Part shown: positions 10,458 to 54,081 of the stretch, piece after piece | Layout of the letters: every line of letters begins with the position of its first letter | Numbering within the stretch: the first letter of the stretch is position 1 | Assembly (NCBI GenBank): GCA_038850285.1 | Contig: JAWCMA010000005.1 | Location: forward strand, 1-54,805 | DNA length: 54,805 nt | Direction of reading: 5' to 3' | Origin: Methanocellales archaeon | GTDB taxonomy: Archaea; Halobacteriota; JAWCLZ01 | The notes under the pieces: generated by a model | The model's database searches: none | Told to the model about the DNA's origin: nothing | What the model saw: only the letters and a program-made list of their open reading frames with translations | Made by a program: the position numbers and the translations under genes

Positions 10458-11711
10458 TTATTCCTCTAGCGTGGTTTGAGTGAAGTTCTCAAGCAAAGGC
10501 TGAGTTTTTATGCCCTCAAGCATTCTCAAGCGAAGGTCTTCAAGTATAACCCTTCTTGTGCTATCTCGAGGCACGCTCATTGTAATTTCCTTAGTTCTAC
10601 CATATCTCCCTTTGCTTACTACTATTGCATTTATTATACCAAGCATGTCTAATTCAGATATTAAATCTGTTATCCTCCTTTGAGTAAGTACCTCTGCATC
10701 GATCTGCCTGCATAGCTTCCTATATACATTAAAAACTTCCCCTGTAGTGGCATTCTTTGTACCTGCCTCCTCCAGTAAAATCATGCTATATAGCACTAGC
10801 TTGCTTTGAGTGGGAAGAGTTCTCACTACTTCAGTAATTCTATCAATTTCGATTTTATCTTGGGCTTGACGCACGTGCTCTTCAGTCACCATTGATACCC
10901 TCTGCCTCTCAGCAAGCTCCCCAGCAACTCTCAATAAATCTAGTGCTCTCCTTGCATCGCCGTGCTCCTGCGCTGCTATCGCTGCGCAGAGGGGGATTAC
11001 TCCATGTGCAAGTGCTCCTTTTTTAAAAGCCATTATTGCTCTTTGCTCCAGTATATCTCTAAGCTGATCTGCATTATAAGGGGGGAAGATAATCTCCTCC
11101 TCCCCTAGGGAGCTTTTGACTCTAGGATCTAGAAATTCTGTGAATTTCAAATCATTGGTAATGCCAATGATACTTACCTTTGCTCTCTTAAGTTCAGTAT
11201 TAATCCTAGATAAATTGTAAAGAACGTCATCGCCACTCTTTTTTATTAATTTATCAATTTCATCAAGGATAATTATAATCGCCTGCTCTTGGGAATCAAG
11301 AGCTTCTTTAAACTCTTTATAAACATGATCCGTGGGCCAACCAGTGAAGGGCACTTCTCTACTGAAGCGATTCGCTAAATGCGCTAGCACCCGATATTGA
11401 GTATCTATAACCTCGCAGTTTAAATATAACACTGTACATGGAATACCTTTAGCTGCACCTGCCCTCTCCAATTCTTTGCCTACATATTTAGCGGTAGCTG
11501 TTTTCCCAGTCCCAGTTTTCCCATATATTAAAACATTAGAGGGCGTTTCATTTCTAAGTGCAACTACCAAAACGCTTGCAAGTGCTTCAATTTGCTCCCT
11601 TCTATGAGGTAAATAATCGGGCGTATAAGAGGGGCGAAGAATTTCCTTATTTTCAAAAAAAGATTCCACTTTGAGCAAGTGATCAAATATCCCGCCTTCC
11701 AAATGCCACAC
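10458..11711 (-). CDS. cdc6: Orc1/Cdc6 replication initiator
   Basis: YTPDYLPHR, GKTGTGKT, ILDEID, GDARRALDLLR, winged-helix SKGRYGRT. Confidence 0.97.
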   Translation of the reverse strand: MWHLEGGIFDHLLKVESFFENKEILRPSYTPDYLPHRREQIEALASVLVVALRNETPSNVLIYGKTGTGKTATAKYVGKELERAGAAKGIPCTVLYLNCEVIDTQYRVLAHLANRFSREVPFTGWPTDHVYKEFKEALDSQEQAIIIILDEIDKLIKKSGDDVLYNLSRINTELKRAKVSIIGITNDLKFTEFLDPRVKSSLGEEEIIFPPYNADQLRDILEQRAIMAFKKGALAHGVIPLCAAIAAQEHGDARRALDLLRVAGELAERQRVSMVTEEHVRQAQDKIEIDRITEVVRTLPTQSKLVLYSMILLEEAGTKNATTGEVFNVYRKLCRQIDAEVLTQRRITDLISELDMLGIINAIVVSKGRYGRTKEITMSVPRDSTRRVILEDLRLRMLEGIKTQPLLENFTQTTLEE

Positions 11712-12112: not shown

Positions 12113-13741
12113 ATGGCTCAGCAACAAGCTGTGCAACCTATTTTAATCTTAAAGGAAGGGAGCCAGAGAACCAGAGGCAAAGAAGCGCAGAGCATGAATA
12201 TTCTCGCAGCAAGAGCAGTAGCAGCCGCTGTGCGAACTACACTGGGACCGAAAGGCATGGATAAAATGCTTGTGGATAGCTTAGGAGATGTAGTGATAAC
12301 CAACGATGGAGTAACCATTTTAAAGGAAATGGACATCGAACATCCAGCTGCAAAAATGATGGTAGAAGTCTCAAAGACGCAAGATCAAGAAGTCGGAGAT
12401 GGCACAACCACAGCTGTGGTAATAGCGGGAGAGCTACTAGGCAATGCTGAGAAATTAATTGACCAGAAGATCCATCCCACAGTTGTAGTATCAGGCTATA
12501 AGATAGCCGCGAAGAGAGCTGAGGAGGTATTGAAAAATATAGCAATTGATGTGGATATAGGCAATGAAAAGCTTTTGAGGCAAACCGCGCTCACTGCAAT
12601 AACTGGAAAGGGAGCTGAAACAGCTAAGGAGGAAATCTCAGAGATCTGCGTGCAAGCAGTCAAGGCAATTGTGGAAAATGGGAAGGCAGATATTGAAAAT
12701 ATACAGATACAGAAAATAGAGGGAGGCAGCACCACAGATTCAAAGCTTGTTCAAGGAGTGGTAATAGATAAAGAAGTGGTGCATCCCCACATGCCAAAGA
12801 GAGTAGAGAATGCAAAGATACTGCTCTTAGACGTAGCACTTGAATATAAGAAAACCGAAGTAGATGCAGAGATTTCAATAACATCTCCAGATCAATTAAA
12901 AGCATTCTTAGATGAAGAGGAACGCATATTGAAGAACATGGTTGATAAAATTGCAGCAACTGGTGCAAATGTAGTGCTCTGCCAGAAGGGCATAGATGAT
13001 ATAGCGCAGCATTACCTAGCAAAAGCAAACATCTTAGCAGCTAGAAGAATAAAGGAAAGCGACATGGAGAAACTAGCGAGAGCTACAGGAGCAACCATAG
13101 TCAAAAGCTTAGAGGGAGTATCTGCTAAAGACCTAGGCAGCGCTGGACTAGTTGAAGAACGCAAATATGGCGAGGATGAAATGATATTTGTGGAGCAATG
13201 CAAGAATCCAAAGGCAGTCACAATAATACTCCGAGGAGGCTCAGAGCACGTTGTAGATGAACTAGAAAGAGGAGTCAACGATGGCCTGCGCGTAGTTGAA
13301 GGAGCAATCGAAGATGGCAAGCTCGTGGCAGGGGGAGGAGCAGCTGAAGTTGAAGTAGCCCTTCGCCTGCGAGAGTATGCGGCAAGAGTAGGGGGAAGAG
13401 AGCAGCTTGCAATTGAGGCTTTCGCAGACGCTATTGAGGTTATTCCAAAGACACTTGCAGAGAACGCTGGCTTAGATCCAATTGACACCATCGTAGATCT
13501 AAGAGCGGAGCACGAGAAAGGCAATAAACACGCTGGACTCAATGTATACACAGGTAAAGTAATAGATATGTATAAAGAAGGCGTGGTCGAGCCATTAAGA
13601 GTAAAAACTCAAGCAATTCACTCAGCCTCAGAAGCTGCAACGATGATTCTGAGGATCGACGATGTAATTTCAGCGGGCAAGCTTGAGAAAGAAGAAAAGA
13701 AACCACCATCCAAGGGCGAGGAGTTCGAATCAGAATATTAA
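12113..13741 (+). CDS. ths: Thermosome subunit (group II chaperonin)
   Basis: [32 protein letters not shown]. Confidence 0.97.
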
Positions 13742-13793: not shown

Positions 13794-14363
13794 ATGGAGC
13801 TTGAGAAAGAGCCTGCATTGGAAAGAAATAAAGTAATGGAGGTAATGCAAACTCAAGAAGCAGAGCTAGCCAAGTTAAAAGTGGAGCTAGAGGAGAAAGC
13901 TAAAGAACTTGAGGAAAAAAAGAAAGAGCTTATGGAAAAAACTAAGCTTGCAGATGAATACTACATTCAGCTGCAGTATTTAAGGGCTGATATTGAGAAT
14001 TTGAAGAAATTTGCCGAAAAAGAAAAAATGGAATATATAAAATTTGCTAATGAAGAGCTGGTTAAAAAAATGCTGCCGGTATTAGATAGCTTTGAAAGTG
14101 CTTTAAAAATGAAATGTGAAAATAAAGGAATAATTGAAGGAATGGAGAAAATATATCGCCAGCTATATGAAATCCTCGAGAAAGAAGGACTTAAATTTAT
14201 TTCAGCAGTTGGCGAGAAATTCGATCCATTTAAACATGAAGCAGTAGCCCAAATTGAAAATAAAAATGCTGAGGAAAATACTATACTAGAGGAACTTCAA
14301 AAAGGATATACCTTTAATTCCAAGGTAATTCGCACATCTAAAGTTAAAGTCTCAAAGAGGTGA
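13794..14363 (+). CDS. grpE: Nucleotide exchange factor GrpE
   Basis: [29 protein letters not shown]; precedes dnaK. Confidence 0.95.
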
Positions 14364-16239: not shown

Positions 16240-16244
16240 AAGCG

Positions 16245-22776: not shown

Positions 22777-23979
22777 TTAAATCATCATAAATTTTTTCCC
22801 CTCACCCTTCACACCACCCCTCACAAACACTGCAGCTAATAAAGCTAGTATCATACTTCCTAAGCAAAATTTAAACATAGTGGCATAGTCGTGGAATAAA
22901 TAGCCCAATGAGGATTGAAAGCAAGCTGCACCAAGGAAGAAAAAGATATTCAAGCTTCCAAGCGCTGTCCCAGCGATTTGCTTAGGAAACATTTCCTTCG
23001 CTATGGCAAGCATTATGAAGGAAATTCCAAAAGCGAGTCCCAATGTGAAGCATATTAGGGAGAGGGTGGAAAGGCTCAAACTATTTTGAGTAAAGGCAAG
23101 CGGCAGCCAAGCAATGGTATAGAGAAGCACGCCGAATATAAAAATAGGCCTCTTAGCTAAGTAGCGATCGAGTACTCCACCAAGGGGGCAGCCGATTATA
23201 ACTCCGATGGCAGTGAACATCAAAATACCTCCCGCTGTTGCTTTATCAAATTTATAACTCTCAATTAAAAAAGGCCCGCCCCAGAGGCCTTGGAAGCTCA
23301 TTAATGTGCCATAGGATAGAAATGCTACAATTGCAAGCAGCCAGAACTCCCTTTTTTTAAATATAGTTAAAATCGCATGCTTTACCTCAAAACGCTGAGG
23401 AGCAAAAGAATAGTCAAAGGGAGAGTCACGTACCACAAGCCAAGCAATGGATGTTAAAATCAAGGTAATGCTTGCTATCACTGCAAAAGAACTACGCCAG
23501 CCAAATGCTAGAACTAGAATTGCCAGTGGAGCTGAGGCAACTAAACCTCCTAAGTTTCCAACGGCAACTAGCAAGCCATTTAAAGTGGCAAAATCACTAG
23601 GGAGAAACCATTCAGCTATCACTTTCAAGGTAGGAATAAAAACCCCGCCCACTCCGAATCCAATTAATGCTCTACCTAGGGTTAGTATTTGAATATCGCT
23701 TGCAAATGCAAATAAAATCGTGCCAATGAATGCAATTAAGCTGAATAAGGTAACAGTTTTCCTCGTACCTAGAGAATCCGAGAGCACACCAATTGGAATT
23801 TGCACAATGGCATAGGTGTAGAAATAAGCAGCACTCATCAAGCCAAGAATAGCACTGCTCGCTTCAAATTCCTCCATTAAATCCAAAGCAACTACAGCTG
23901 GAGCAACGCGATGGAAGTAAACCCAGAAGTATAAACTCGCTAGCGAGGCAAAGATATACCAGCGGTGCCAGCGGTGCAT
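22777..23979 (-). CDS. MFS transporter
   Basis: About 12 TM helices; motif A-like GVLSDSLGTRK; GRALIGFG. Confidence 0.9.
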   Translation of the reverse strand: MHRWHRWYIFASLASLYFWVYFHRVAPAVVALDLMEEFEASSAILGLMSAAYFYTYAIVQIPIGVLSDSLGTRKTVTLFSLIAFIGTILFAFASDIQILTLGRALIGFGVGGVFIPTLKVIAEWFLPSDFATLNGLLVAVGNLGGLVASAPLAILVLAFGWRSSFAVIASITLILTSIAWLVVRDSPFDYSFAPQRFEVKHAILTIFKKREFWLLAIVAFLSYGTLMSFQGLWGGPFLIESYKFDKATAGGILMFTAIGVIIGCPLGGVLDRYLAKRPIFIFGVLLYTIAWLPLAFTQNSLSLSTLSLICFTLGLAFGISFIMLAIAKEMFPKQIAGTALGSLNIFFFLGAACFQSSLGYLFHDYATMFKFCLGSMILALLAAVFVRGGVKGEGKKFMMI

Positions 23980-24040: not shown

Positions 24041-24412
24041 ATGAATATGAAGCTTGGCGTTGAACTTCAGTTTGATGCAGCCCATAGTCTCCCTAGGTAT
24101 GAGGGCAAATGCAAGAACATCCACGGGCATACCTATACAGCTGAGGTTATAGTTAGCGGCAAGGTGGATGGTGAAACGCATTTTATTTTAGATTACTTCA
24201 TTCTTAAAAAACTACTTGGAGAAGTAATTGCAGAGCTTGACCATAGATATCTCAATGAGATCTTGGAGTATCCAACGAGCGAGAGAATTGCTCAATATAT
24301 CTATAGGAAGATGAGGGAAAAACTCAAGGGATACAATGTAGAGTTAATATCCATAAAGCTATGGGAGGGAAAAGATAAGTGGGTTAAAATTGAGAAGGGG
24401 GATGAGGATTAA
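24041..24412 (+). CDS. queD: 6-carboxy-5,6,7,8-tetrahydropterin synthase QueD
   Basis: FDAAH, CKNIHGH, LDHRYLN, PTSERIA, LWE. Confidence 0.93.
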   Translation: MNMKLGVELQFDAAHSLPRYEGKCKNIHGHTYTAEVIVSGKVDGETHFILDYFILKKLLGEVIAELDHRYLNEILEYPTSERIAQYIYRKMREKLKGYNVELISIKLWEGKDKWVKIEKGDED

Positions 24413-24977
24413 ATTGAAGGTGAAAATATTAAACAAGCGATTGAACTACGATGGCTCTCAGCTCCGAGCCCTTTGGGCACTTGAGGAATTGGGATTGCAG
24501 GGCAGCTCAATAGTGGTATTCAGAGGAGGGATGAATGTAGCTAGAGATCAAATGCGGGATTTAAAGGATAAAAGAGAATTGAGGGAGATAAAGGGGGAGA
24601 ATTTGATTCACTTCATAGTGGAAGTCATAGATCCAAGCGCTGATTTAAGACTTGCTTACTATGCTCAAAGATTGCTGCTCTGCATCGCTAAAGACAAACT
24701 AGAGGAATTCGGAGTGAAGGCAGCTAGAGAAGGCGGAGATTTATATTTCAATGGGAGAAAGCTCAGCGTTAGCATTGCAAATTCCAACTTAAATGGCTAT
24801 AAAATCCATTTAGGTATAAATATCACCTCAAAACAAGCCCCAGAAGGAGCAATTGGCTTGAGGGAAATCCATAAGAAAATAAAGGCAATGGAAATTGCTA
24901 GATCGATTGCGAAGCAATTCGCAATAGAATGCGAGGATATAGAGCGAGATATTGCAAAGACAAGGGCATTTGGATGA
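24390..24977 (+). CDS. DUF366-family protein
   Basis: YDGSQL, FRGGMNV, HFIVE, GGDLY..RKLSVSIA, HLGINI; lies between queD and queC. Confidence 0.8.
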   Translation: MRRGMRIKLKVKILNKRLNYDGSQLRALWALEELGLQGSSIVVFRGGMNVARDQMRDLKDKRELREIKGENLIHFIVEVIDPSADLRLAYYAQRLLLCIAKDKLEEFGVKAAREGGDLYFNGRKLSVSIANSNLNGYKIHLGINITSKQAPEGAIGLREIHKKIKAMEIARSIAKQFAIECEDIERDIAKTRAFG

Positions 24978-25039
24978 AAACTTTATGAAAACTTTATGAA
25001 GGCTTTATGAAAACTTTATGAAAACTTTATGAAGGCATT
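24974..25039 (+). repeat. Six tandem 11-bp units (ATGAAAACTTT / ATGAAGGCTTT); the last one is the queC start
   Basis: Units begin at 24974, 24985, 24996, 25007, 25018 and 25029; pattern AAB-AAB'. Confidence 0.95.
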
Positions 25040-25718
25040 TGTATTGCTTTCCTCGGGTCTTGATTCTACAGTTGCATTTAAAAAAGCATTGGATGAATTT
25101 GAGGAAGTGAGATGCCTCACCTTTGACTACGGTCAAAAAGCAAGACTGCGTGAATTGGAATATTCAAAGAAAATTTGCTCGCTATTTAAAGTAAAGCATA
25201 GCATAATAAAGCTGCCTTGGCTAGCTAAATTCAAGGGAAGTTTAACTCAAAGTAATAAACTGCCTGAACTAAAGGAAGAAGACCTTGATATAGAGGCGAA
25301 GATAAAAGAATCCTCAGCTCAAGTCTGGGTACCGGCTAGAAACACTGTTTTCTTGAGCATAGCAGCTAGCTATTGTGAAAATTTTGAATTCAATGCAATT
25401 GTAGCAGGCTTCGACGCAGAGGAAGCTGCGAGTTTTTCAGATAATTCCGCGCAGTTTATATCCAGCTTCAACGCCATGCTTAAATATGGGGTTAGAAGAC
25501 ATATAGAGGTCATTGCACCTTTAATAGAGATGAATAAAGCGGAAATCGCTGCTTTAGGGATAGAAATAAAAGCTCCCCTGGAGTGGTCTTGGTCTTGTTA
25601 TACTTCGAATAAGTTTCCCTGCGGTAAATGTGAATCATGCGCTAGGAGAAAACGAGCTTTTAAAGCCATTGGGAAAAAAGACCCTCTATTAATAAGACTT
25701 GGAGTGGAGAAACCGTGA
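25029..25718 (+). CDS. queC: 7-cyano-7-deazaguanine synthase QueC
   Basis: LSSGLDS PP-loop, FDYGQ, VPARN, SCY..PCGKCESC. Confidence 0.95.
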   Translation: MKAFVLLSSGLDSTVAFKKALDEFEEVRCLTFDYGQKARLRELEYSKKICSLFKVKHSIIKLPWLAKFKGSLTQSNKLPELKEEDLDIEAKIKESSAQVWVPARNTVFLSIAASYCENFEFNAIVAGFDAEEAASFSDNSAQFISSFNAMLKYGVRRHIEVIAPLIEMNKAEIAALGIEIKAPLEWSWSCYTSNKFPCGKCESCARRKRAFKAIGKKDPLLIRLGVEKP

Positions 25719-27700: not shown

Positions 27701-28462
27701 ATGAAGCAAGAAAAAGCCATTATTCGAGAGATATTTAATAGCATACAGGGAGAAGGCATATATCTTGGGACTAGACAGGTATTCGTGCGCTTCCAAGGCT
27801 GCCCCCTGCGCTGCAGCTACTGCGATTCAATTGAAACTTGGAACTATGAGCTTGAGAGCTGTAGAGTTGAAAAAACACCTGGAGCTAGAGATTTCTATAA
27901 TGTTAGCAATCCTCTAAATGTAAATGAGCTTGAGAGGATAGTTAAAAAACTCTGGCTGCCTAGTACAAAGCACCTCAGTTTAACAGGTGGCGAGCCCCTG
28001 CTCTATGCAAGCTATATAGCAGAACTTAGCTCCAACCTAGATAAAAAACTCTACTTGGAAACAAATTCCGCCCTACCAGCTCAAGCTGAGCAAATTAAGC
28101 ATTGCATAGACATTGCCTCCTGCGATATAAAACTGCTTGAGCACGGCAATTTCGATGATTATGACCAGCTTTTGAAAGATGAACTTGAAACTCTAAGGAT
28201 CTTTTACAAAGCCAAGGTAGATTTATTTGCAAAAATCGTGATTTTAGCGGAAACAACACCAGCGAGTTTATCCCCTGCAATAGAAGGCATAGCTCGAATT
28301 TCAAAGGGAATTCCACTTGTGCTACAGCCTGTAACTCCCACTAGAAAAATAAAAGCCAAGCCCGCGCCTATGAAACTACTTGAACTCATGGAGTATGCAG
28401 GGAGAAAACTTTTAGATGTAAGAGTGATCCCTCAAGCTCATAAAATCACAGGCTTTCTTTAG
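27701..28462 (+). CDS. queE: 7-carboxy-7-deazaguanine synthase QueE (radical SAM)
   Basis: EIFNSIQGEG, FVRFQGCPLRCSYCD, LTGGEPL, LETN, LQP, PQAHK. Confidence 0.93.
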   Translation: MKQEKAIIREIFNSIQGEGIYLGTRQVFVRFQGCPLRCSYCDSIETWNYELESCRVEKTPGARDFYNVSNPLNVNELERIVKKLWLPSTKHLSLTGGEPLLYASYIAELSSNLDKKLYLETNSALPAQAEQIKHCIDIASCDIKLLEHGNFDDYDQLLKDELETLRIFYKAKVDLFAKIVILAETTPASLSPAIEGIARISKGIPLVLQPVTPTRKIKAKPAPMKLLELMEYAGRKLLDVRVIPQAHKITGFL

Positions 28463-38731: not shown

Positions 38732-39319
38732 TTGATGCAGCTACTGCTTTTTTTGTTTATTATTTTTATTTTTGCAATAATTCTATTCCTCATTCTATTT
38801 CTCCCCATCGATTTAGATTTTGAGATAATCTCCACGCCTAAGAAGAAGGAAAGGAAATACTTTATTAGCTGGCATATATTTCGAAGACAAATATCAATAG
38901 CGAAAAAAGAATCTAACGTGGAAAGGAAATTTGAATTCAAATTAGAGTATTTAGAATTCATGGGGCCAATCTTTGGCTTTATTCAAGAAGCCAAAAGGTC
39001 ACTTGTTATTAAAGACTTTACACTTTCAATATATTTTGGCACGTCAAATCCAGCATATACAGGAATGATTTTTGGCTACCTAAGCGCCTTACAATATGCT
39101 GCTATGGAAATGTTTCCTAAAATTTCATTCAATATCTCCTCAGACTTCTCAAAAGAAAGATTTGATTATTATTCAAAAGGAAGCATATCTCTAAAGCCAT
39201 ACCTCTTGCTTTCTGCCTTAATTAAATTCATGCTTAGAAAACCAATTCGCACGCTAATAAAAAATGAAATCTCAAGAAAATTGACCATCCATAGAAAAAC
39301 TATTTCACTAGGAACATAA
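38732..39319 (+). CDS. DUF2953 / YtfI-like membrane-anchored protein
   Basis: N-terminal TM anchor, FGTSNPAYTGMIFG motif, usual partner of YtfJ. Confidence 0.72.
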   Translation: MMQLLLFLFIIFIFAIILFLILFLPIDLDFEIISTPKKKERKYFISWHIFRRQISIAKKESNVERKFEFKLEYLEFMGPIFGFIQEAKRSLVIKDFTLSIYFGTSNPAYTGMIFGYLSALQYAAMEMFPKISFNISSDFSKERFDYYSKGSISLKPYLLLSALIKFMLRKPIRTLIKNEISRKLTIHRKTISLGT

Positions 39320-39339
39320 ATCCAAATAAAAAATTTGTA

Positions 39340-39498
39340 TTAAGATGATATTGTTGGAGTAATTTGAGCAATGGCGATGGAATAAGCGCTCCAATGAGGC
39401 TGGCAACTTGAGATCACCCCCACAGCTCTTTCTATATCTTCCTTCGTAGCTTTATCGAAGTCCTTGGTAAGCGCTCGCAAGCATTTGCGATAGGCTTT
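39340..39498 (-). pseudogene. Possible remnant of a tyrosine-integrase N-terminal (SAM-like) domain
   Basis: Start-less frame KAYRKCLRALTKDFDKATKEDIERAVGVISSCQPHWSAYS immediately 3' of tRNA-Thr; resembles the KxFxxATKEDI segment of archaeal integrases. Confidence 0.4.
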
Positions 39499-39504
39499 AA
39501 ATTA

Positions 39505-39591
39505 AGCCTCGGGCGAGATTTGAACTCGCGACCTGCTGATTTCTTGCTTTTGCTACAAGTCAGCCGCTCTACCCGGCTAAGCCACCGAGGC
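39505..39591 (-). tRNA. tRNA-Thr(TGT) with a 13-nt intron at 37/38 (39541-39553)
   Basis: GCCTCGG/CCGAGGC acceptor; GCTGA-CT-TGT-A^GCAAAAGCAAGAA^A-TCAGC; BHB motif with a CTTG/CAAG central helix. Confidence 0.94.
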
Positions 39592-39623
39592 ATTTTTCTT
39601 ATAATAGAAATTTTTGCTTTGAT

Positions 39624-41057
39624 TTAAAGCTTCCCCTCCATTTTCATATACCATTTTGAACCTGAAGGTGTATCCTCAATTATTATGCCCACATCCCTCA
39701 ATTTATCTCTAATCTTATCAGCGGTCCTCCAGTCCTTTCTATCTCTAGCCTCTTGCCGTATTTCTAATAAAAGTTCAATTAAATCTTTAATCATCCCAGT
39801 GCTTTCCCTGGGCATCTCTTTTTCAATATATTTATTAAATAAGTTCAATATTCCCCCGAGCTCTCTATATGTGCTTATTATCTCATCCGCAAGCTTTTTA
39901 TTTACCTCGCCATGTTTAGCTAGGAATTTATTTATCTCCCCGGTTAATTTAAAAAGACTTGCAAGTGCTTTAACTGTATCGAAGTCATTATCCATATTTT
40001 CTAGAAACTCTTCCCTTGCAGCTTTAATTTTCAATTGCAAATCGCGCTCGCTCTCGCTTATTTCCCTTTCTCTTGCTTGTGAAATAATACGTTTTAAAGT
40101 TCCATAGATTTTCTCCAAACTAGCTTTAGCTTGCTCGAGCTTCGCATAATCAAAATCAATGGGACTTCGATAGTGAGCTGAGGCGAAGAATAGCCTTATC
40201 ACCTCGGCATCGTAACGCTTAAGTAGATCTCTCAGCAAGACGAAGTTACCTAGCGACTTGGACATTTTCTTACCTGCAACCTTTAAAAAACCAGTATGAA
40301 CCCAGAATCTAACAAATTGCCTCTCAAGGAGAGCTTCTGATTGTGCAATTTCATTCTCATGATGAGGGAAAATTAAATCCACTGCTCCACCGTGGATGTC
40401 AATTTCACTGCCAAGGAACTTCGAGGCCATCACGGAACATTCAATGTGCCAACCGGGTCTGCCTCTCCCCCATGGGCTATTGAAGCCAAAGTCATTATTT
40501 TCCACGCGCTTCCAGAGGGCGAAATCCGCGAAGTGGCGCTTTCTCTCGTCGATTTCCCCCCTCACTCCTGCTTTTATCTGCTCCAAGGATAGCTTTGAAA
40601 GCTGGCCGTAGTCCTTGAACTTTGAAACATCGAAGTAAACATTTCCCTCCACTTCATAAGCAAAGCCTTTTTCAATTAAAAGCTGAATTGCTTTAATTAT
40701 ATCTGGGATATTCTCCGTTACCCTTGGATAAATATCTGCTCTCGCGATTCCAACGCTTTCTAAATCTCTCAGTCCCTCCTCACTGAATTTCTCGGTCAGC
40801 TTGAGGGGATGAATCCCAAGTTCTCTAGCTCGATTAATTATCTTATCATCCACATCGGTGATATTCTGAACATAAAAGACTTTATAGCCTTTGAACTGTA
40901 AATAACGTCGAATAATATCAAAGGCAAGATAAGTTCTAGCGTGCCCGATATGCACGTGGTCGTATACCGTTAATCCACAGACATACATCTTTACCTCAGT
41001 CTTTGAATTAAATTCCTCCAACCGATTGCTCATTGTATTGAAAATCTTCAGAGCCAT
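39624..41057 (-). CDS. cysS: Cysteinyl-tRNA synthetase (class I)
   Basis: MYVCGLTVYD, HIGH, PGWHIECS, HHENE, KMSKS. Confidence 0.97.
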   Translation of the reverse strand: MALKIFNTMSNRLEEFNSKTEVKMYVCGLTVYDHVHIGHARTYLAFDIIRRYLQFKGYKVFYVQNITDVDDKIINRARELGIHPLKLTEKFSEEGLRDLESVGIARADIYPRVTENIPDIIKAIQLLIEKGFAYEVEGNVYFDVSKFKDYGQLSKLSLEQIKAGVRGEIDERKRHFADFALWKRVENNDFGFNSPWGRGRPGWHIECSVMASKFLGSEIDIHGGAVDLIFPHHENEIAQSEALLERQFVRFWVHTGFLKVAGKKMSKSLGNFVLLRDLLKRYDAEVIRLFFASAHYRSPIDFDYAKLEQAKASLEKIYGTLKRIISQAREREISESERDLQLKIKAAREEFLENMDNDFDTVKALASLFKLTGEINKFLAKHGEVNKKLADEIISTYRELGGILNLFNKYIEKEMPRESTGMIKDLIELLLEIRQEARDRKDWRTADKIRDKLRDVGIIIEDTPSGSKWYMKMEGKL

Positions 41058-41083
41058 TACTTTGATATTCAACTTAACTTAAC

Positions 41084-42205
41084 TTAACTTTTCCCAACTT
41101 CACCGCAATAGGCACTTGCTATTTCCCTCTTGAATTCTAAAAATTCCCCATTTAAGATTGCCTTCCTAGCTTGGGATAGTAATTCTTGCAGGAAGAAGAG
41201 GTTGTGCATGGTTACAAGCCGCATGCCAAGCATCTCATGCACCTTCAATAGATGGTGGATGTATGCTCGAGTGTAGCTCTTGCAAGCAAAGCAGTTGCAT
41301 TTTCTATCGATGGGTGAAAAATCCCTCGCATATCTCCCTCTCCTCAAGCTAAATCGCCCTTTATTGGTATAAACGGTGCTGTGTCTAGCATTCCTAGTGG
41401 GATAAACACTGTCAAATAAATCTATGCCCATGGAAATGGAGTTCAAAAGATCAAGGGGAGCGCCAACTCCCATAAGATATCTAATTTTTTCCTCTGGAAT
41501 TAAGGGTACTGTATAGCTAAGTACTTCATACATTACTTTCTTCGGCTCGCCAATGCAAAGCCCGCCAATTGCATAGCCTTGGAAATCCATTGCACTCAAT
41601 GCACAAGCGCACTCCCTTCTTAAATCGGGATAAGTACCGCCTTGTATTATGCAGAATAGGACTTGATCTTCTCTTCGATGTGCTTCTTTGGTAATTTTTG
41701 CCCATTCAATTGTGCGCTGAGTAGACTTTTTCACGTATTCATAATCACTTCCATAGGGCGGGCAGTCATCGAGTACCATTGCCGCGTCTGATCCAAGTTC
41801 CATTTGCACCTCTATGCATTTAAGAGGTGTAAATCTATGCTTAGTGCTATCAAAAGGACTTTGGAAAACAGCGCCTTTATTGCTTACCTGCAGTAATAGT
41901 TTATCATTGAGCATTTGAAATCCACCGCTATCAGTGAATATCGCTCCTTTGAAATTCATGAATCCATGAATCCCCCCTGCCTCTTTTATAACCTTCACCC
42001 CTGGCTTTAGATATAAAATGAAGGCATTGGAAATGATTGCTTGAACATTGATTGCATACAATTCCTCGGAGCTAAGTGTTTTAACACTCGCCTTAGTGGC
42101 AACTGGCATGAATGCAGGGGTATCCACTATTCCATGCTTGGTATGCAGTCTGCCTACTCGTGCAGCGGTTTTTTCATCTTTACCCAGCAATTCAAACATC
42201 TTCAT
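41084..42205 (-). CDS. tgt: tRNA-guanine transglycosylase, bacterial (preQ1, position 34) type
   Basis: TPAFMPV, TDSGGFQ, LDDCP, IQGG, GGLCIGE, YLMGVG, FDSVYPTRNAR, CxCxxC...H zinc site; 373 aa with no C-terminal PUA domain. Confidence 0.92.
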   Translation of the reverse strand: MKMFELLGKDEKTAARVGRLHTKHGIVDTPAFMPVATKASVKTLSSEELYAINVQAIISNAFILYLKPGVKVIKEAGGIHGFMNFKGAIFTDSGGFQMLNDKLLLQVSNKGAVFQSPFDSTKHRFTPLKCIEVQMELGSDAAMVLDDCPPYGSDYEYVKKSTQRTIEWAKITKEAHRREDQVLFCIIQGGTYPDLRRECACALSAMDFQGYAIGGLCIGEPKKVMYEVLSYTVPLIPEEKIRYLMGVGAPLDLLNSISMGIDLFDSVYPTRNARHSTVYTNKGRFSLRRGRYARDFSPIDRKCNCFACKSYTRAYIHHLLKVHEMLGMRLVTMHNLFFLQELLSQARKAILNGEFLEFKREIASAYCGEVGKS

Positions 42206-42207
42206 CC

Positions 42208-43203
42208 CTATTTCAAAATCAACATTGCATCTCCAAAGCTATAAAAGCGATAGCGCTGTGCTATTGCTTGTTCATAAGCCCTTAAAATCTTCTCTCTCCC
42301 AGCATAAGCGCAGACTAGCATAAGCAGCGTGGAACGGGGTAGATGGAAGTTGGTTATCAATGCATCGATTTTGGCTTTGAATTCATAGCCTGGATATATG
42401 AATAAATCTGTTAATCCCTCGAAGGGTTGAATTTTCCCATTTATGCAAGCGCTCTCAAGTGCTTTAACTACAGAGGTGCCCACTGCAACTATCTTTCCTT
42501 TAGCACTATTCAATATATTCGCAGTTTCCTCTTGAACTCTGCAGTATTCCCCTTCCATTTTATGCTGCTCGATACTCCTAACTGGCATAAACGTGCTTAT
42601 TCCAATATGCAGCGTGATAAAGACAACATTAACCCCCATTAACTCCAACTCTTTGAGAAGTTCAGCAGTGAAGTGAAGCCCCGCGGTGGTTGAAGCTAGA
42701 GAGCCATTTATCCTTCCATAAATAGTTTGATATCGCTCTTTATCACTGAGCTCTTTTTTAATATAAGGCGGGATTGGTAAAGAGCCAATTTTAGCCAGCA
42801 ATTCTTGTGATACCTCGCGATTGAATTTAACTATAAATCTCCCAAGTCCAAGATCCGCTATTACTCTGCCTTCCAGTTCTTTGAAAATTAGTTTTTTTCC
42901 AGGCTGTAAATTTCTTCCTTTAATAAAGCATTCCCAAGCATCCTCAACCTTTTTTATGAGTAAAAGTTCTACTTTTCCACCTGTGGTTTTTCTACCTTCA
43001 ATTTTAGCTGGTATAACTCGAGAGTCATTCAATACAAGTATGTCTCCACTTCTAAGGTATTCTACTATGTCCGAGAACCTGCGATGTGCAATTTCCTGGC
43101 TCTTGCAATTTAGAACTAAAAGTTGGGAAGCACTTCTGGGTTCAACTGGGGTTTGTGCAATTAAGGCTTTTGGAAGTGGATAATCAAAATCCTCAAGCTT
43201 CAT
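42208..43203 (-). CDS. queA: S-adenosylmethionine:tRNA ribosyltransferase-isomerase
   Basis: FDYPLP..LIAQ, NDSRVIPA, PPYI, YQTIY, TAGLHF, TNFHLPRSTLLMLV, YRFYSFGDAMLI. Confidence 0.95.
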   Translation of the reverse strand: MKLEDFDYPLPKALIAQTPVEPRSASQLLVLNCKSQEIAHRRFSDIVEYLRSGDILVLNDSRVIPAKIEGRKTTGGKVELLLIKKVEDAWECFIKGRNLQPGKKLIFKELEGRVIADLGLGRFIVKFNREVSQELLAKIGSLPIPPYIKKELSDKERYQTIYGRINGSLASTTAGLHFTAELLKELELMGVNVVFITLHIGISTFMPVRSIEQHKMEGEYCRVQEETANILNSAKGKIVAVGTSVVKALESACINGKIQPFEGLTDLFIYPGYEFKAKIDALITNFHLPRSTLLMLVCAYAGREKILRAYEQAIAQRYRFYSFGDAMLILK

Positions 43204-43257
43204 TATAATTGAGATATGCATAATATCTTAATATACCTTAACCCAGATTAATTTAAG

Positions 43258-44202
43258 ATGATTGGCATAACTGCTCTCATTCCCCCTGAGGTAATATATG
43301 CCTGCGGCGAGCGCGCTTTAGATCTTAATAACTTCGTACCGCATTCAAAGTTGAATCCTCGAGATAAACTTTGTGCGTGGACTGCTATTTGGCGTGATTT
43401 AGTGTTAAGCGGTGAGGTGAAAATCGATGCTTTAGTGGTAATCGCAGGGGGTGACTGCAACAATGCCATAGTAGATGGAGAGAAGCTTGAGCTAGCTGGA
43501 ATTAGAACTCTATATTTAATGTATCCTTTCGATGGTTCAAAGAGGCTTATGCGCATGCAAATTGAAAAGCTGCTGAATTTCCTAGGCGGGATTAAGGATA
43601 GAAGTGTATTTAAGAAAATCAACAAGCTTAAGAAGCAGGCCATGAGGCTTGATGAACTTCGAGTTAGAGGTAGAGCAGCAGCTAAAGATGTATTTCAAAT
43701 TGAGATTTCCAGCAGCGATTTAATAGGTGATTTGGAGAAATATGAAGAGGCATTAAATAGAGTGGTTGAGCAAAAATTGAATTATAAATATCGCATTGCT
43801 TTACTGGGAACCCCGCCGATTTATCCTGATTTCCATGATTATCTGCAATCAATTGGCTTGCACGTGGTATATGATGAAATGCCATATGAATTCATTCGCC
43901 TTGAGGGTAAAAATTTAGAGGAGATAGCTGCTAACTATAGAAACTATACTTTCGCTAGGAATATAAAATTCAGATTGAAATTCATTGAGAATGAAATTAG
44001 AAGAAGGGAAGTTCAAGCTATTATTCATTTTCAACAATTTGCTTGCCACCACAAGCTTGAGGATCCAATTTTAAGGCAATATTTCAATAAAGAACTAGGC
44101 ATTCCCTATATCACCATAGAAGCTGATCTGCCTGGCAAAATACCCGAGCAGGTAAAGCTCAGGCTTGATGCATTTGCAGAGCGCCTTGGAGGGAGGCTGT
44201 AA
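43258..44202 (+). CDS. 2-hydroxyacyl-CoA dehydratase / benzoyl-CoA reductase-like Fe-S subunit (stand-alone)
   Basis: PPEVIYA, three Cys motifs LCAW / GGDC / QFAC, C-terminal IPYITIEAD...RLDAFAE typical of the HgdA/HgdB family. Confidence 0.78.
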   Translation: MIGITALIPPEVIYACGERALDLNNFVPHSKLNPRDKLCAWTAIWRDLVLSGEVKIDALVVIAGGDCNNAIVDGEKLELAGIRTLYLMYPFDGSKRLMRMQIEKLLNFLGGIKDRSVFKKINKLKKQAMRLDELRVRGRAAAKDVFQIEISSSDLIGDLEKYEEALNRVVEQKLNYKYRIALLGTPPIYPDFHDYLQSIGLHVVYDEMPYEFIRLEGKNLEEIAANYRNYTFARNIKFRLKFIENEIRRREVQAIIHFQQFACHHKLEDPILRQYFNKELGIPYITIEADLPGKIPEQVKLRLDAFAERLGGRL

Positions 44203-44922
44203 TTGCTCATAGGCATTGACATTGGAAGTATAAGTGCCAAGGGAATATATTACTCCAATGGCACTTATACTTGGCAAGTGGTTGATACTCATAATTGGAG
44301 GGAGTTGCTTGCTGAGAGAAAAAAGGAAGATATCGTGATTGCAACTGGATATTTCAGGAAAAAAGTGCCTTGTGATGAAACTGTGACTGAAATAACCTCT
44401 GCTATCTATGGAGTGAAACATTTTCTTAAAAAAGAAATCGAGGTCATCGTTGACATAGGGGGGCAGGATATTAAAGTAATAGATCTACGGAGCAATGACT
44501 TTAGAATGAATGATAAATGCTCAGCTGGGACAGGTGCTTTTCTCGAACTAGTTGCTAGATATTTTGATTTAAAGGTTGAGGAGCTTGAGAAATATCATTT
44601 CAAGGCGGAGAAATATGCTGAGATTAATAGCACTTGCTCGGTTTTCGCGCTCTCTGAAATTGTTTCAAAACTTGTTGAGGGGTTCTCCAGAGAAGAGATT
44701 ATTAAAGGAGTTCACTTTGCCTTTGCAAATAGAATTGCCCAACTCATACCAATCGACGCGAAGAAAATAGCTTTGATAGGTGGCATAGTTAAAAATCGAG
44801 GAGTAGTGGATGCTCTTGAAAGAGTTTTGAATAAAAATGTACATGTGCCTAGTGAACCGCAAATTGTAAATGCGATTGGAGCAGTTGAATATTATCTTTA
44901 TCTAGCTAAAGATATTTCTTAA
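44203..44922 (+). CDS. ATP-dependent Fe-S activator (HgdC/BadF-BadG ASKHA family)
   Basis: GIDIGS, ATGY, DIGGQD, MNDKCSAGTG, NSTCSVFA. Confidence 0.9.
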   Translation: MLIGIDIGSISAKGIYYSNGTYTWQVVDTHNWRELLAERKKEDIVIATGYFRKKVPCDETVTEITSAIYGVKHFLKKEIEVIVDIGGQDIKVIDLRSNDFRMNDKCSAGTGAFLELVARYFDLKVEELEKYHFKAEKYAEINSTCSVFALSEIVSKLVEGFSREEIIKGVHFAFANRIAQLIPIDAKKIALIGGIVKNRGVVDALERVLNKNVHVPSEPQIVNAIGAVEYYLYLAKDIS

Positions 44923-45295
44923 TTCTCGCTTCAAGCAGCTCTCTTGATAGTGCTCCAGTTACTCGATCTATCAATTTTCCATTTTTGAAGAATAACAGCG
45001 TGGGAATAGCATTGATTCCAAATTTCAAAGCTGTATTGATATTTTCATCGGTATTTAATTTGCCGAACAACACTCTTCCCTCATAGTTTCTAGCTAGATC
45101 TTCTATTACAGGTGCAAGCATTCTACAGGGCATGCACCAAGGTGCCCAGAAGTCAACTATTATGAATGGATATTGCTCTATAACTGCTGAAAAGTTCTCA
45201 TCCGATATTTCTATTACTCCTAGGGGGTTTTTTTTAGATAATTTCTCAATCAATTCCTTCATTTTCTTGGCTTTTATTTCTTCGATTTCACTCAT
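44906..45295 (-). CDS. trxA: Thioredoxin
   Basis: VDFWAPWCMPC, IPT. Confidence 0.93.
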   Translation of the reverse strand: MSEIEEIKAKKMKELIEKLSKKNPLGVIEISDENFSAVIEQYPFIIVDFWAPWCMPCRMLAPVIEDLARNYEGRVLFGKLNTDENINTALKFGINAIPTLLFFKNGKLIDRVTGALSRELLEARIKKYL

Positions 45296-45449
45296 CTGAA
45301 TCATCTGAATCCTTATAATTTATTTTCTATTTAATTTTAATTTATCCTCTACTATAAATTTTTGCACGATTTTGGCAAAAATGAATATATAACTAATCGA
45401 AATGCTTTTTATTAGATGGCATAAATATCTTTGAAAGGAGGAGTTTGAA

Positions 45450-46276: not shown

Positions 46277-47050
46277 ATGTCTTTGAGAAAGATTTTAGAG
46301 AGGCTTAAAAAACACGAGGTAAGCGTAGGAGAAGCTGAAAAGCAGATTAAGCTATTGAGCTTTAAAAAACTTGAAAAAATCGCCAAGCTCGATATACATA
46401 GAGAAAAAAGAACAGGCATCCCAGAGGCCATACTTGCTGAGGGAAAAAGCATAAAAGCATTGATTAAAATTGCAAAAGCTCAGCTTCAAAGCGAGGGAAA
46501 AGCAATTATAACTCGCTTGAGCGAAGCGCAGCTTGAACCTCTAAGGAAAATCTGCAGAAGAGGGGTAAAGCTAGAATGGTATGAAAATGCTCGAATTGCA
46601 ATTCTAAGGAAGGGGAAAAAACCAGAGCGAAGCGGTGGAAAAGTTGGAATAGTCACAGCTGGAACCGCTGATATAGCTGCAGCGGAAGAAGCTAAGGTTA
46701 TTGCAGAGGAAATGGGCTGTGAAGTGCTAGAGATCCGCGATGTAGGAGTGGCTGGTATACACCGCCTTTTCCCTGAATTAAGCAAGCTCGTGGAGTTTGG
46801 AGCAGATGCTGTTGTCGTAGCCGCTGGCAGAGAAGGGACTTTACCAGCGATCGTAGCAGGCTTGCTAGATGTACCAGTAATAGGCTTGCCAGTTTCAACT
46901 GGCTATGGAAAAGGCGGCAGTGGAGAGGCTGCATTACTCGCGATGCTTCAATCCTGCTCCGCTCTAGCTGTGGTGAACATTGATGCGGGCTTTGTAGCAG
47001 GTGGAGTTGCAGCGAGAATTGCAAATAAAGCAGCTGAGGGTAGAAAATAA
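46277..47050 (+). CDS. larB: LarB-like (AIR carboxylase superfamily) protein
   Basis: REKRTGIPEAILAEGK, TAGTAD, DVGVAGIHRL, AGREG, PVSTGYG, VVNIDAG. Confidence 0.88.
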   Translation: MSLRKILERLKKHEVSVGEAEKQIKLLSFKKLEKIAKLDIHREKRTGIPEAILAEGKSIKALIKIAKAQLQSEGKAIITRLSEAQLEPLRKICRRGVKLEWYENARIAILRKGKKPERSGGKVGIVTAGTADIAAAEEAKVIAEEMGCEVLEIRDVGVAGIHRLFPELSKLVEFGADAVVVAAGREGTLPAIVAGLLDVPVIGLPVSTGYGKGGSGEAALLAMLQSCSALAVVNIDAGFVAGGVAARIANKAAEGRK

Positions 47051-51397: not shown

Positions 51398-52495
51398 TCA
51401 AGGCAGGAAGCGCTTTTGCTCTATTTTATTGGGGAGATAAACATTTGCAGTGAATTCAATGGATTTAGCAACAAGTGCATCTTGCTCTATTTTATAGCCT
51501 CCTGCTTTTAAGTCCCTGAGTTCTTTCTGCCATTCCTTAGTGGAGAACCACTTATAATTGGAAAGTTCTTCGATTCGAGCATAATCTTCAGCATCAAGCT
51601 TTATGAGCGAGCTAGGTGGGAAGTCGTATTCCACGCGGTCGCTAGTTGTAAGCCCTAAAAACTTTGCATTGGGACAAGCTGCTTTTTCTGAGAAATAAGC
51701 AAGGGTAATTGAGCCTTGCTTGTAAACTGAGTATATATAATAGCCCCATGGATCCATATCGGTGAATATATAAATGGGGAGTTTAAACTCGCTTTCAAAG
51801 CGCTTTAGAAGGCGGCGCTCAGCTCTCGCTGGCTGTCCTTTGCCTGTTAATAGCAAGCAATTGTGCTTTTTCCAGTATTTCTGTTGATTCAAGAGATTCC
51901 AAACTGCATATTTCTCAACCACTAGTATATAATCCGCGCTGCATTCCTTTATATTAAAAAAGTCTTTCTCAACTATTGGTGGAATTGCCCCTCCAGCTGA
52001 GCCCATTTTGCTAAAATCCAATATATCCCCAGTTTTATCCTCCACCATTAGTGGTCCAGCGAGTACGCCTTTTGGGGTTGCGATCAATCTCAATTGCTCT
52101 CGGAGGGAATTGGTTAATACTTCTATGTCTTCTATAATTGGATCGGATTCCTCTTGGGTTTCAAAGGTATTCTCCCCTGTGCCTTTGATCTCATGTTTGA
52201 GCATGTAAAATAGCTGCCTTATATCCAAGGGGGGTTTATCTTCATCAAGCAGCCATTTTATTTGCTTTGCCACAAGCAATGTTTGCAGGAACTTCTTAGC
52301 TTGAGCTATGTTGAAGTAATATCGCCTTTGAGTATTACTTCCGAGTTTTATCACGCCTGCTTTTTCATCATAGTAAACATTATCGAGAGACCTAACTAGG
52401 ATTTCAAGCGAGGGATTTTTTCCTAGGTCTATATCCTCAAGTACTTTTTGTCCTATGTTTTGAAGATTCTTAGCTATTACTTCTACTTTATTCAT
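51398..52495 (-). CDS. top6A: DNA topoisomerase VI subunit A
   Basis: RQLFY catalytic Tyr, VVEK, GKGQP, DMDPWG, EQDAL. Confidence 0.95.
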
Positions 52496-54081
52496 TCTTC
52501 ACTCTCCAAGCTGCCAATTCGCTTGTCTAGAATCTGCAGCAGCTGTTTCTCTATATCCTTAGCAGGTCTGGAGGTTAAGCCTTGAAGGGCATCGGCAAGT
52601 AGAGGGGTATAGGCTAGAAAGATATTCTTCTTTTTACTTGCCTCAATCATTCGCCGCTTCTTAGCTAAAAAGCCGCTGAGCTTCCTTGCTAGTTCGCGAA
52701 GCGCGAGTTCAACTTCTTCCATAATTTCAGGTATACTTGCTATTGCATCTTTTGACTCCGAGGTAAATGGCACTTTTGTGGAAGCTATGTGAATCAAAAT
52801 CACGAATGGCCCTGATGGCAGGCTTGAGTTATTCGCTTGCTCTATACCATAGTATTTCCAGTTTATCTTTTCAATCGCTTGTGTTATTGCACAAGCCCCT
52901 TGCTGATAGAGTAATGGCACGCGATTGGCAAAGCGCAAAATCTCAATGCGCTCAGCATTGTTGATATCCCCTCCATATGCCAGTCCTGCTTCTGCAATGA
53001 AAGGATTGCCAGCATATACTCTCGCAGCTCGAGTAGTTGTAGCTATGAAATCTGGTTTAAATTCTCTCTCAAGGCTTCTGTAAATCAATTGCTCGGTAAT
53101 TGGAGAGAGGCAGTCTAAACTTGGAGCATTGATTTTAACGTTTTTAAAAGCCATTAAAAGCCTTTTGGCCTCTTCAAGTGTTACTTCCCAAGGCGGTTTA
53201 TTTATATCTAGCTTTGCTTCTCTGCAGATATTACGAGCTGTATGCTGTCCTATGCTTTGGAATTCGTTGATTAAAAAAGTGCCCAGCTTTCTATTATTAG
53301 AGCGCTGCAGCATCTTCATCAACATGCCAATATCGATACCGCGGGGATGGGGCTTTACCTCGATGGATTGCTTGGGAAGTTCATGGGTTAATCTTTCATA
53401 TAGGATTTCAGTGCCATTTGGCTCAATCAAGCGAATTCTAGCGTGGGGATTCACTATAGAGGTTGCCTTTAGATATTCCTGCACCGATTTCTTGCCCCTT
53501 ACATATGTGCCCTCTATTTCCAGTTCAATTCTAGTGCCAGTTTGATACCATTCAATGGTTTTTTCAACTACAATTTCAGGTTCATTTGTTTGAGTATTGA
53601 TGAAGAGCTCGAAATAATAAGCAGGTTCATTACTTGCGATTTTAGAAATTATCTTAACTGGTTTGCCTGAGGTAATTTGAGCATAAAGCACTGCAGCGCT
53701 AATACCAAGTCCCTGCTGCCCCCGGCTTTGTTTCAAAGTGTGAAAGCGACTTCCATATAATAGCTTGCCGAAAACCATTGGAAGTTGAGATCTAATTATT
53801 CCAGGGCCGTTGTCCTCGACTGCTATTTTATAATTCTTCTCATCAATCTTCTTAATCTCAACCCAGATATCTGGTAAAATACCTGCTTCTTCGCAAGCAT
53901 CAAGGCTATTGTCAACTGCTTCTTTAACACAGGTAATAAGGCTCCTTATTGGTGATTCAAAGCCCAAGATATGGCGATTCTTCTCAAAAAACTCAGCCAC
54001 GCTTATTGAGCGCTGTTTCTTCGCTAGCTCTGCAGCAATTGGGATATCTTTTACCGCTGAATTTGCAATAGCCAATTCCAT
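52492..54081 (-). CDS. top6B: DNA topoisomerase VI subunit B
   Basis: [36 protein letters not shown]. Confidence 0.96.

Follow-up and report, generated by a model that had tools for sequence, protein, structure and literature searches.

Queuosine (Q) and archaeosine are the textbook tRNA modifications that separate Bacteria and Eukarya from Archaea. Contig JAWCMA010000005.1 of a Methanocellales archaeon, whose whole length of 54.8 kb is called the window here, carries the queA and tgt genes of the bacterial Q pathway in a tight array with cysS. We consider it probable that the chromosome, itself truly archaeal, has acquired with this array a bacterial-type queuosine module by horizontal transfer and that the module is functional, its activities being predicted from the sequence. 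A recognisable gene can be assigned in this genome to every step from GTP to Q at position 34 except the conversion of preQ0 to preQ1, and a gene pair divergent from queA is a tentative candidate for that step.

The queA-tgt-cysS array

The tgt gene (41084..42205, minus strand) encodes a 373-amino-acid bacterial-type tRNA guanosine(34) transglycosylase (TGT) that scores 460.2 bits on TIGR00430 (cut-off 306.75) and 168.3 bits, below the cut-off of 350, on the archaeosine TGT (arcTGT) model TIGR00432. Because a single Pfam TGT domain, at residues 14-366, is the only match in the protein, it carries neither a PUA domain nor another C-terminal extension. Of the TGTs with solved structures, that of T. 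maritima (2ash) matches best at 357 bits; the enzymes of the E. coli type and of Z. mobilis reach 309-328 bits, eukaryotic QTRT1 about 280 bits and the P. horikoshii arcTGT 1iq8 107 bits. The low score on TIGR00432 and the distance between the 1iq8 and 2ash scores rule out that the protein is an arcTGT. Identity with the DNA-modifying DpdA was rejected as well, given that no model in PADLOC, which we take to include DpdA models, matched at E<=0.01 and that the neighbours are queA and cysS rather than dpd genes.

The roles of the catalytic Asp pair, the 7-deazaguanine pocket and the zinc site of TGT are known from the Z. mobilis literature, in the numbering of which Cys158 and Val233 belong to the pocket motifs and a small residue at 233 marks queuine-using enzymes. 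The window TGT has DSGGFQ at 92, LDDC at 145-148, GGLCIGE at 214-220, FDS at 264, CxCxxC at 303-308 and His334. Residues D92, D146, C148, L216-C217-I218, E220, D265, C303, C305, C308 and H334 align with their E. coli and T. maritima counterparts, Ile218 lying opposite the Val of E. coli GGLAVGE, and the catalytic and zinc positions are identical to those of E. coli, T. maritima and 30 sequences of one bacterial phylum. The pocket differs from the aligned bacterial enzymes only by Asp147 in place of Glu and Ile218 in place of Val. Val occupies the 218-equivalent position in 32 of 33 aligned bacterial sequences, the exception being a long-branched Chlorobiota sequence with a divergent motif that has Tyr and Ile at the two pocket positions; Ile is also present there in T. 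maritima TGT. The Asp147 and Ile218 signature recurs in all 12 archaeal-clade TGTs examined (the clade is described below), and all catalytic, pocket and zinc residues are identical in the three relatives from the same class. The alignment of Asp, Cys, Ile and Glu with E. coli and T. maritima thus supports a pocket of the preQ1 type. A sequence-only reading of this stretch had singled out the same motifs (DSGGFQ, the D-x-C Cys and GGLCIGE), the missing PUA domain and a preQ1-inserting pocket, and these observations hold.

Upstream of tgt, in the gene order of E. coli, lies queA (42208..43203, minus strand), encoding tRNA preQ1(34) S-adenosylmethionine ribosyltransferase-isomerase. It scores 410.2 bits on NF001140 (cut-off 324), 376.1 bits on TIGR00113 (cut-off 267.45) and 400.6 bits on PF02547, and the match is near full length (model positions 1-343 of 346). 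Its reading frame is open to 43221 (337 amino acids), with the ATG at 43203 ('MKLEDFDY') as the likely true start, so that both genes lie within the limits (41084-43203) that the sequence-only reading had given them. The third gene of the array, cysS (39624..41072, minus strand), encodes cysteine--tRNA ligase (TIGR00435, 545.1 bits, cut-off 340) and may start at a downstream ATG. The gaps are 2 bp between queA and tgt and 11 bp between tgt and cysS, in keeping with the apparent operon that the earlier reading had described among archaeal genes.

Genomic setting, distribution and phylogeny

The window is the whole of contig C5 in a 39-contig, 1.28-Mb metagenome-assembled genome (MAG) that is estimated to be 93.3% complete and 1.5% contaminated. 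The fragmented assembly, the contamination estimate and the bacterial origin of the family would be compatible with an artefact in which a bacterial piece carrying queA-tgt was mis-assembled or mis-binned into an archaeal MAG. However, family-model searches of the window place archaeal markers on both sides of the array: Orc1/Cdc6 (10458..11711, minus strand; NF001625, 682.8 bits, cut-off 501) and a thermosome subunit (12113..13741, plus strand; NF041082, 836.3 bits) on one flank, and both DNA topoisomerase VI subunits (51398..54081, minus strand; A at 51398-52495, NF003333, 536.2 bits; B at 52492-54081, NF003218, 723.2 bits) on the other. GC composition is uniform over the window and the genome, and tRNA genes with introns are present in the genome as well (ARAGORN, Rfam). 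The queA-tgt-cysS order is syntenic in three other species-level MAGs of the class, titled Methanocellales archaea by their depositors, whose homologues are 81-90% (TGT) and 69-85% (QueA) identical to the window proteins; in two of the three the HgdB-like gene pair discussed below also stands alongside. Bacterial-type TGT and QueA thus occur together in 4 of the 4 genomes examined of the source's GTDB class, and dN/dS values against the three relatives are 0.069-0.097 for tgt, 0.075-0.132 for queA and 0.076-0.091 for cysS, which puts selection on the two Q genes in the range of that on cysS.

In Logan, the cysS/tgt, tgt/queA and queA/HgdB-like junctions are spanned by contigs from three runs of a single study, a bridging that attests to local consistency only and is not independent, because these runs may include the source sample. 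Runs containing the sequence are labelled hot springs metagenome; a further run, from sediment, matches conserved stretches of cysS alone, at 90-95% identity, and carries no evidence on habitat. Together with the archaeal names of all 13 organism-named sequences among the 120 nearest TGT matches listed, the flanks, the synteny, the even composition and the bridged junctions exclude a chimeric or contaminating segment for practical purposes, and we hold an assembly or binning artefact to be extremely improbable.

To place these genes among archaea, two samples were used, one of 401 genomes of the phylum and one of 111 genomes of a related order; families are numbered f. In the phylum sample a bacterial-type TGT above cut-off is encoded by 63/401 genomes and QueA by 7/401; the seven comprise four genomes of the source class, a Methanoperedens-like genome of f30 (G227, from the related order) and two genomes of f34 (G262 and G342). 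In the order sample 45/111 genomes encode QueA, distributed as 28/29 in f30, 15/20 in f34, 1/1 in f38, 1/6 in f39, 0/27 in f37 and 0/28 in f2. The earlier statement that such genes are only rarely predicted in archaea therefore has to be qualified, in view of these counts for TGT in the phylum sample and for QueA in the order and of the 34 archaeal genomes given in PMC8204110.

The organism-named TGT matches include Hydrothermarchaeales, Methanoperedens, Thermoplasmata and Pyrohabitans, and the QueA matches follow the same archaeal pattern with a bacterium, Thermanaeromonas (56% identity), at its edge. The nearest bacterial TGT among GTDB species, from a Thermoanaerobacterales MAG, is 51% identical. 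In a quick maximum-likelihood tree of 91 rows rooted with an arcTGT outgroup and sampling, for Bacteria, a single phylum, E. coli and one row each of Clostridia and Chlorobiota, the window TGT falls within a 41-row clade (SH-aLRT 92) that contains f30, f34, all 12 archaeal-named sequences included and rows without an organism name. This clade stands apart from the 32 bacterial rows (97) and from a QueA-less archaeal clade (100).

The second archaeal TGT clade comprises sequences from 56/401 genomes, all without QueA; the loci sampled from it belong to families f4, f10, f21 and f31. Its members score 426-589 bits on TIGR00430 and are about 37% identical to the window TGT (16 sampled). In the 16 aligned sequences GG-SLG stands in for the GGLxVGE motif, with K, N or Q as the next residue in place of the Glu, and these TGTs may use another substrate. 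Four tgt genes of this clade have in-frame stop codons, TAG in each and TAA too in one. QueF-like domains with a conserved Cys motif were seen at four loci of family f4, for the most part in genera that have no bacterial-type TGT, at the C-terminus of 245-460-amino-acid frames and behind an unrelated N-terminal domain. Among the TGT-positive genomes of the phylum sample only 7/63 show a QueF match of any kind, and QueA is lacking in all seven.

Elsewhere on the contig, bacterial-type DnaK (908 bits) and DnaJ (459 bits) genes lie directly downstream of the thermosome gene (14368-17420, plus strand), another bacterial import, with a 189-amino-acid open reading frame at 13794-14363 in between. 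Contigs of two runs have a 14-nt insertion behind position 38681, a strain variation in an intergenic or short-open-reading-frame region.

The preQ0-to-preQ1 step and the HgdB-like gene pair

In the proposed pathway, TGT would exchange G34 of GUN-anticodon tRNAs for a 7-deazaguanine base, most likely preQ1; QueA would then add the epoxycyclopentanediol moiety from S-adenosylmethionine, and QueH, encoded elsewhere in the genome, would reduce epoxyqueuosine to Q. A parallel archaeal branch would use FolE2, QueD, a QueE-like protein and QueC to make preQ0, which arcTGT and ArcS would convert to archaeosine at G15. Given that the archaeosine branch runs on preQ0, both branches would share one preQ0 pool, and because QueF is absent, the reduction of preQ0 to preQ1 is the sole step without a known enzyme.

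The genes for preQ0 lie 13-17 kb from tgt, as the sequence-only reading had noticed: queD (24041..24412, plus strand), encoding 6-carboxytetrahydropterin synthase (TIGR03367, 97.9 bits, cut-off 89.25), and queC (25029..25718, plus strand), encoding 7-cyano-7-deazaguanine (preQ0) synthase (TIGR00364, 191.4 bits, cut-off 150.3), are above cut-off, whereas the QueE-like radical-SAM protein (27701..28462, plus strand), a probable 7-carboxy-7-deazaguanine synthase with Pfam Radical_SAM and Fer4_12 domains, stays below the cut-off of all five QueE models (best 64.6 bits). A FolE2-type GTP cyclohydrolase homologue is encoded at C2:72867-73793. The genome further encodes arcTGT (616.8 bits) and ArcS (628.9 bits) adjacently on contig C39, a pair with counterparts in two of the class relatives (G001 and G002), and two QueH genes (about 196 bits each, above cut-off) on contigs C1 and C33, not co-localised with queA-tgt. 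The QueH model also finds its matches in the control genomes of T. maritima and L. lactis, and G001 and G002 have one QueH gene each. QueG gave nothing above cut-off in the genome, the best being a 63-bit partial match on C21 (cut-off 200) over model positions 130-208 only. Since QueH is present, the predicted end product is Q and not epoxyqueuosine; the earlier reading had left both open, and the search for arcTGT, ArcS, QueF, QueG and QueH that it proposed speaks for the former.

Several side observations concern these genes. The two QueH copies (C1:139337-139843 and C33:830-1333) are 92% identical and differ in context, one lying beside a geranylgeranyl reductase gene and the other beside a methylmalonyl-CoA mutase gene; they would stem either from a genuine duplication or from two strains binned together. 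A DUF366 gene (24390..24977, plus strand; PF04017, 205.4 bits) overlaps the end of queD and precedes queC, an arrangement kept in all three class relatives, and its product is probably tied to preQ0 or archaeosine synthesis. Divergent from queD is a gene for a transporter of the major facilitator superfamily (MFS; 22777..23979, minus strand), with sub-threshold MFS matches only.

The tRNA gene 32 bp downstream of cysS (39505..39591, minus strand; RF00005, 58.7 bits) has a 13-nt anticodon-loop intron. Default ARAGORN misses it and the intron mode calls it Ser(TGA), yet it has no long variable arm; by our own reading the anticodon would be UGU (Thr) if the 13-nt intron is a canonical 37/38 one.

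A number of results weigh against this account of the module or limit it. QueF gave no match to TIGR03139 or TIGR03138 in the 93.3%-complete genome, and a custom hidden Markov model built from same-phylum archaeal QueF domains found nothing at E<=10 in its six-frame translation. The transporters YhhQ (PF02592) and QueT (PF06177) gave no match in the genome either, and the substrate supply for TGT and QueA is left unexplained by the failure to find any of these three. QueH was not found in one class member (G003, 92% complete). Genes for tRNA-Tyr(GTA) and tRNA-Asn(GTT) were found by ARAGORN, but those for tRNA-Asp and tRNA-His are not among the 28 ARAGORN tRNAs of this MAG. With its unresolved backbone and narrow bacterial sampling, the TGT tree names neither a donor nor a direction of transfer. 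Finally, recent specialist papers still describe de novo Q synthesis as exclusive to bacteria (PMC11130926, introduction) and deny archaea the capacity to make Q (PMC5372724, discussion).

The absence of QueF extends to all 12 QueA-positive archaeal genomes searched (0/12: the source, the other six of the phylum sample and five high-quality genomes of the order sample, one of them a single contig). De novo synthesis, which the earlier reading had proposed from the presence of queC, queD and queE, is thus not explained by known enzymes, and the need for preQ1 would be met either by salvage or by an unrecognised reductase.

A candidate for such a reductase stands next to queA. The gene at 43258..44202 (plus strand) encodes a 314-amino-acid HgdB/DCCP-like iron-sulfur protein (Pfam HGD-D, 93.8 bits), and a BcrAD/BadFG-type ATPase gene ('activase'; 44203..44922, plus strand; TIGR00241, 178.2 bits, cut-off 125.4; PF01869, 117.1 bits) starts directly after its stop codon. 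The 54-bp intergenic region between the divergent queA and HgdB-like genes (43204..43257), read from the sequence, contains an AT-rich TTAATATA element at 43228-43235, which lies some 26-29 nt away from each of the two start codons and is a putative shared archaeal TATA box. A sigma-70 scan of 39300-45400, which is not designed for archaea, gave 13 promoter-like sites against 16.1 expected and five terminator-like sites against 4.9 expected.

An AlphaFold2 model of the HgdB-like protein built on a 40-homologue alignment reached a pLDDT of 95.5, and Foldseek related it (TMq 0.77-0.80, probability 1.00) to HadC, to the Bzd/Mbd benzoyl-CoA reductase subunits and to DCCP 6eno. Sequence similarity to these fold relatives is marginal (phmmer E about 0.003), and the protein lies outside the DCCP equivalog (NF040772, 35.9 bits against a cut-off of 350). 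C39, C67, C263, H193, H257, H264 and H265 are invariant across the 40 homologues, and a cluster held by the three invariant Cys would have one Fe site open. The modelled fold, the adjacent activase and the invariant Cys as putative cluster ligands place the protein in the DCCP/2-hydroxyacyl-CoA dehydratase superfamily. Just beyond the activase lie a gene at 44906-45304 (minus strand) that is thioredoxin-like by eye only and a gene for LarB of nickel-pincer cofactor synthesis (46277-47050, plus strand; 240 bits, cut-off 175), both of which are kept in one of the syntenic relatives.

With a genome profile threshold of E<=1e-15, the HgdB-like protein was found in exactly the seven QueA-positive genomes of the 401 in the phylum sample. 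In the order sample it occurs in 45/45 QueA-positive genomes, while 61 genomes lack both; the five QueA-negative genomes that have it all come from families where QueA occurs, and four of them are 61-84% complete. The gene is divergent from queA also in two class relatives (G002 and G003) and in a genus of f34 (g93), to which adjacency, by coordinates, is confined within the order sample. Because the two genes are non-adjacent in most genomes, their shared profile does not reflect one mobile block.

A search of metagenome contigs with the HgdB-like alignment gave 80 loci of 42-62% identity. The activase adjoins the HgdB-like gene in 68/80, and queA is adjacent and divergent in 8/80, tgt being present in seven of these eight. 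The queA-adjacent HgdB-like proteins fall into at least three separate subclades of the protein tree, and the TGT of one such locus (L104) groups with Thermoplasmata-named sequences. A folE2 gene (PF02649, 281.5 bits) lies upstream on the same strand in 9/80 loci, on Methanoperedens-like contigs and directly so in one (L122), and about 0.5 kb upstream of the pair in two Methanoperedens-like genomes (G227 and G525); queH lies 4.5 kb from the HgdB-like gene in L126. Organism-named homologues are all archaeal, comprising the taxa of the TGT/QueA clade together with ANME-2, Methanosarcinales and Methanomassiliicoccales, and none was found in three bacterial genomes tested. An Atlas search gave generic HGD-D clusters only, the family cluster listing 71% bacterial members.

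Salvage of preQ1 would have the archaeon import the base from neighbouring bacteria through an unrecognised transporter, its own preQ0 serving archaeosine only while TGT, QueA and QueH are put to use. We give this explanation somewhat less than an even chance. It accords with the QueF gap here and in the 11 other QueA-positive genomes, with the mixed-community origin indicated by the hot springs label, and with the diversity of preQ1 transporters, whose discovery is ongoing in the MFS, ureide-permease and hemolysin-III families (PMC11130926, in the part available to us). The MFS gene divergent from queD might be named as an importer, on speculation only: the adjacency is kept within the class but not outside it (neither G227 nor G262 has it), the protein is above no family cut-off, and nothing ties any transporter to the pathway, YhhQ and QueT being missing from the genome. 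The other way of supplying preQ1 would be that archaea acquiring queA-tgt never took queF and that the HgdB-like protein with its activase is a non-orthologous replacement, an ATP-driven low-potential iron-sulfur reductase that acts on preQ0, either as the free base or once inserted into tRNA, and reduces its nitrile to the aminomethyl group found in preQ1, which would make Q synthesis in these archaea fully de novo. We regard this as unlikely, although the divergent arrangement with queA, the folE2 and queH neighbours, the presence of the protein in every QueA-positive genome of both samples independently of a single mobile block, the lack of QueF, the reductase/dehydratase fold and its presumptive open Fe site all point in its direction, and the literature search gave no paper linking the pair to the queuosine pathway. 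Against it, 72/80 metagenomic loci have no queA nearby and the more distant ones (42-47% identity) have no Q genes; the other neighbours are a PNPOx-like gene (20 loci), a 125-amino-acid open reading frame (19 loci) and TetR, ABC transporter and amidohydrolase genes, and folE2 also feeds pterin synthesis. The bacterial share of the Atlas family cluster and a homologue in one Methanosarcina barkeri record, when the family that we take to include Methanosarcina (f2) has no QueA, point the same way. Moreover, the co-occurring genomes belong to few lineages (f1; f30, f34, f38 and part of f39), and shared ancestry alone could therefore give the common profile.

TGT might instead insert another base, for example preQ0 from the archaeosine pool, so that position 34 carries preQ0 or a new derivative while QueA and QueH act on another substrate or are idle. 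The cell makes preQ0 but lacks a known source of preQ1, preQ0 is accepted in vitro by E. coli TGT, and the archaeal clade has its own Asp147/Ile218 signature. However, the window TGT retains all three pocket residues (Asp, Cys and Glu) of preQ1-type enzymes, QueA depends on the aminomethyl nitrogen of preQ1 for its reaction, and it would be difficult to see why QueA and QueH are kept under housekeeping-like selection if the cell never made their substrate. We therefore hold insertion of another base to be quite improbable, and a bacterial-type module acting most likely on preQ1 is the favoured reading.

Significance and comparison with known systems

A free-living archaeal lineage with both systems under selection makes the presence of Q in archaeal tRNA directly testable. 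Methanoperedens is available as enrichment cultures, and QueA is encoded by 28/29 of the Methanoperedens-like genomes. The lineage also reveals a hole in the pathway, QueF being missing from all 12 genomes, and a specific gene pair that might close it. Should the HgdB-like candidate prove true, a known step would gain a new enzyme by non-orthologous displacement of QueF, and the radical-enzyme superfamily of ATP-driven iron-sulfur reductases would gain a new reaction type and substrate class. De novo Q synthesis would then be known outside Bacteria for the first time, fed by the precursor pool of archaeosine. If the candidate failed, salvage from bacterial neighbours would be the default reading, itself a new cross-domain micronutrient dependency.

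Q genes in archaea are not unprecedented, because Castelle et al. 2021 (PMC8204110), as far as its text was available to us, had already described the bacterial Q pathway, in whole or in part (QueA, QueH-like and Tgt), from 34 archaeal genomes, 12 of them DPANN and some of them Methanosarcinales. QueF, preQ1, preQ0 and QueC are nowhere mentioned in the main text of that paper, and the consistent QueF gap and the co-occurrence of QueA with the HgdB-like protein and its activase go beyond this main text. In the literature searches no report of Q in the tRNA of an archaeon came up, nor any paper that treats queuosine together with Methanoperedens. The gene sets of PMC8204110 and those described here share the same three families as a bacterial import. 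They differ, on the evidence of the same available text, in lineage and in that a whole class is positive here (4/4), in that the present genome makes its own preQ0 and archaeosine, and in that gene co-localisation occurs there in DPANN while QueH is not co-localised here.

Compared with the bacterial Q pathway, represented by E. coli queA-tgt, the TGTs 2ash and Z. mobilis 1enu, and QueH/DUF208, the array has the same families and gene order, the same catalytic Asp, the Asp/Cys/Glu pocket and the CxCxxC...H site, and QueH is likewise the last step in T. maritima and L. lactis. By contrast, the archaeal host also has arcTGT and ArcS and has no recognisable QueF, QueG, YhhQ or QueT; tgt is followed by cysS, whereas in E. 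coli it is followed by yajC-secDF; and Asp147 and Ile218 are the archaeal clade's own. With the archaeosine system of TgtA and ArcS the module has in common the TIM-barrel TGT superfamily and, by prediction, the same preQ0 pool, but the window TGT is below cut-off on the arcTGT model, lacks C-terminal and PUA domains and is paired with QueA, the real arcTGT being on C39. QueF, an NADPH-dependent preQ0 reductase with a T-fold, performs the very step that is needed here. Finally, the HgdB-like protein has the common fold and the BcrAD/HgdC-type activase of the ATP-dependent [4Fe-4S] superfamily (DCCP 6eno and 7yyl; HadBC 3o3m; class I benzoyl-CoA reductases 8s02 and 9gai), from whose members it differs in being shorter (314 against 373-438 amino acids), in being encoded by one catalytic gene instead of an alpha/beta pair, and in having three invariant Cys only.

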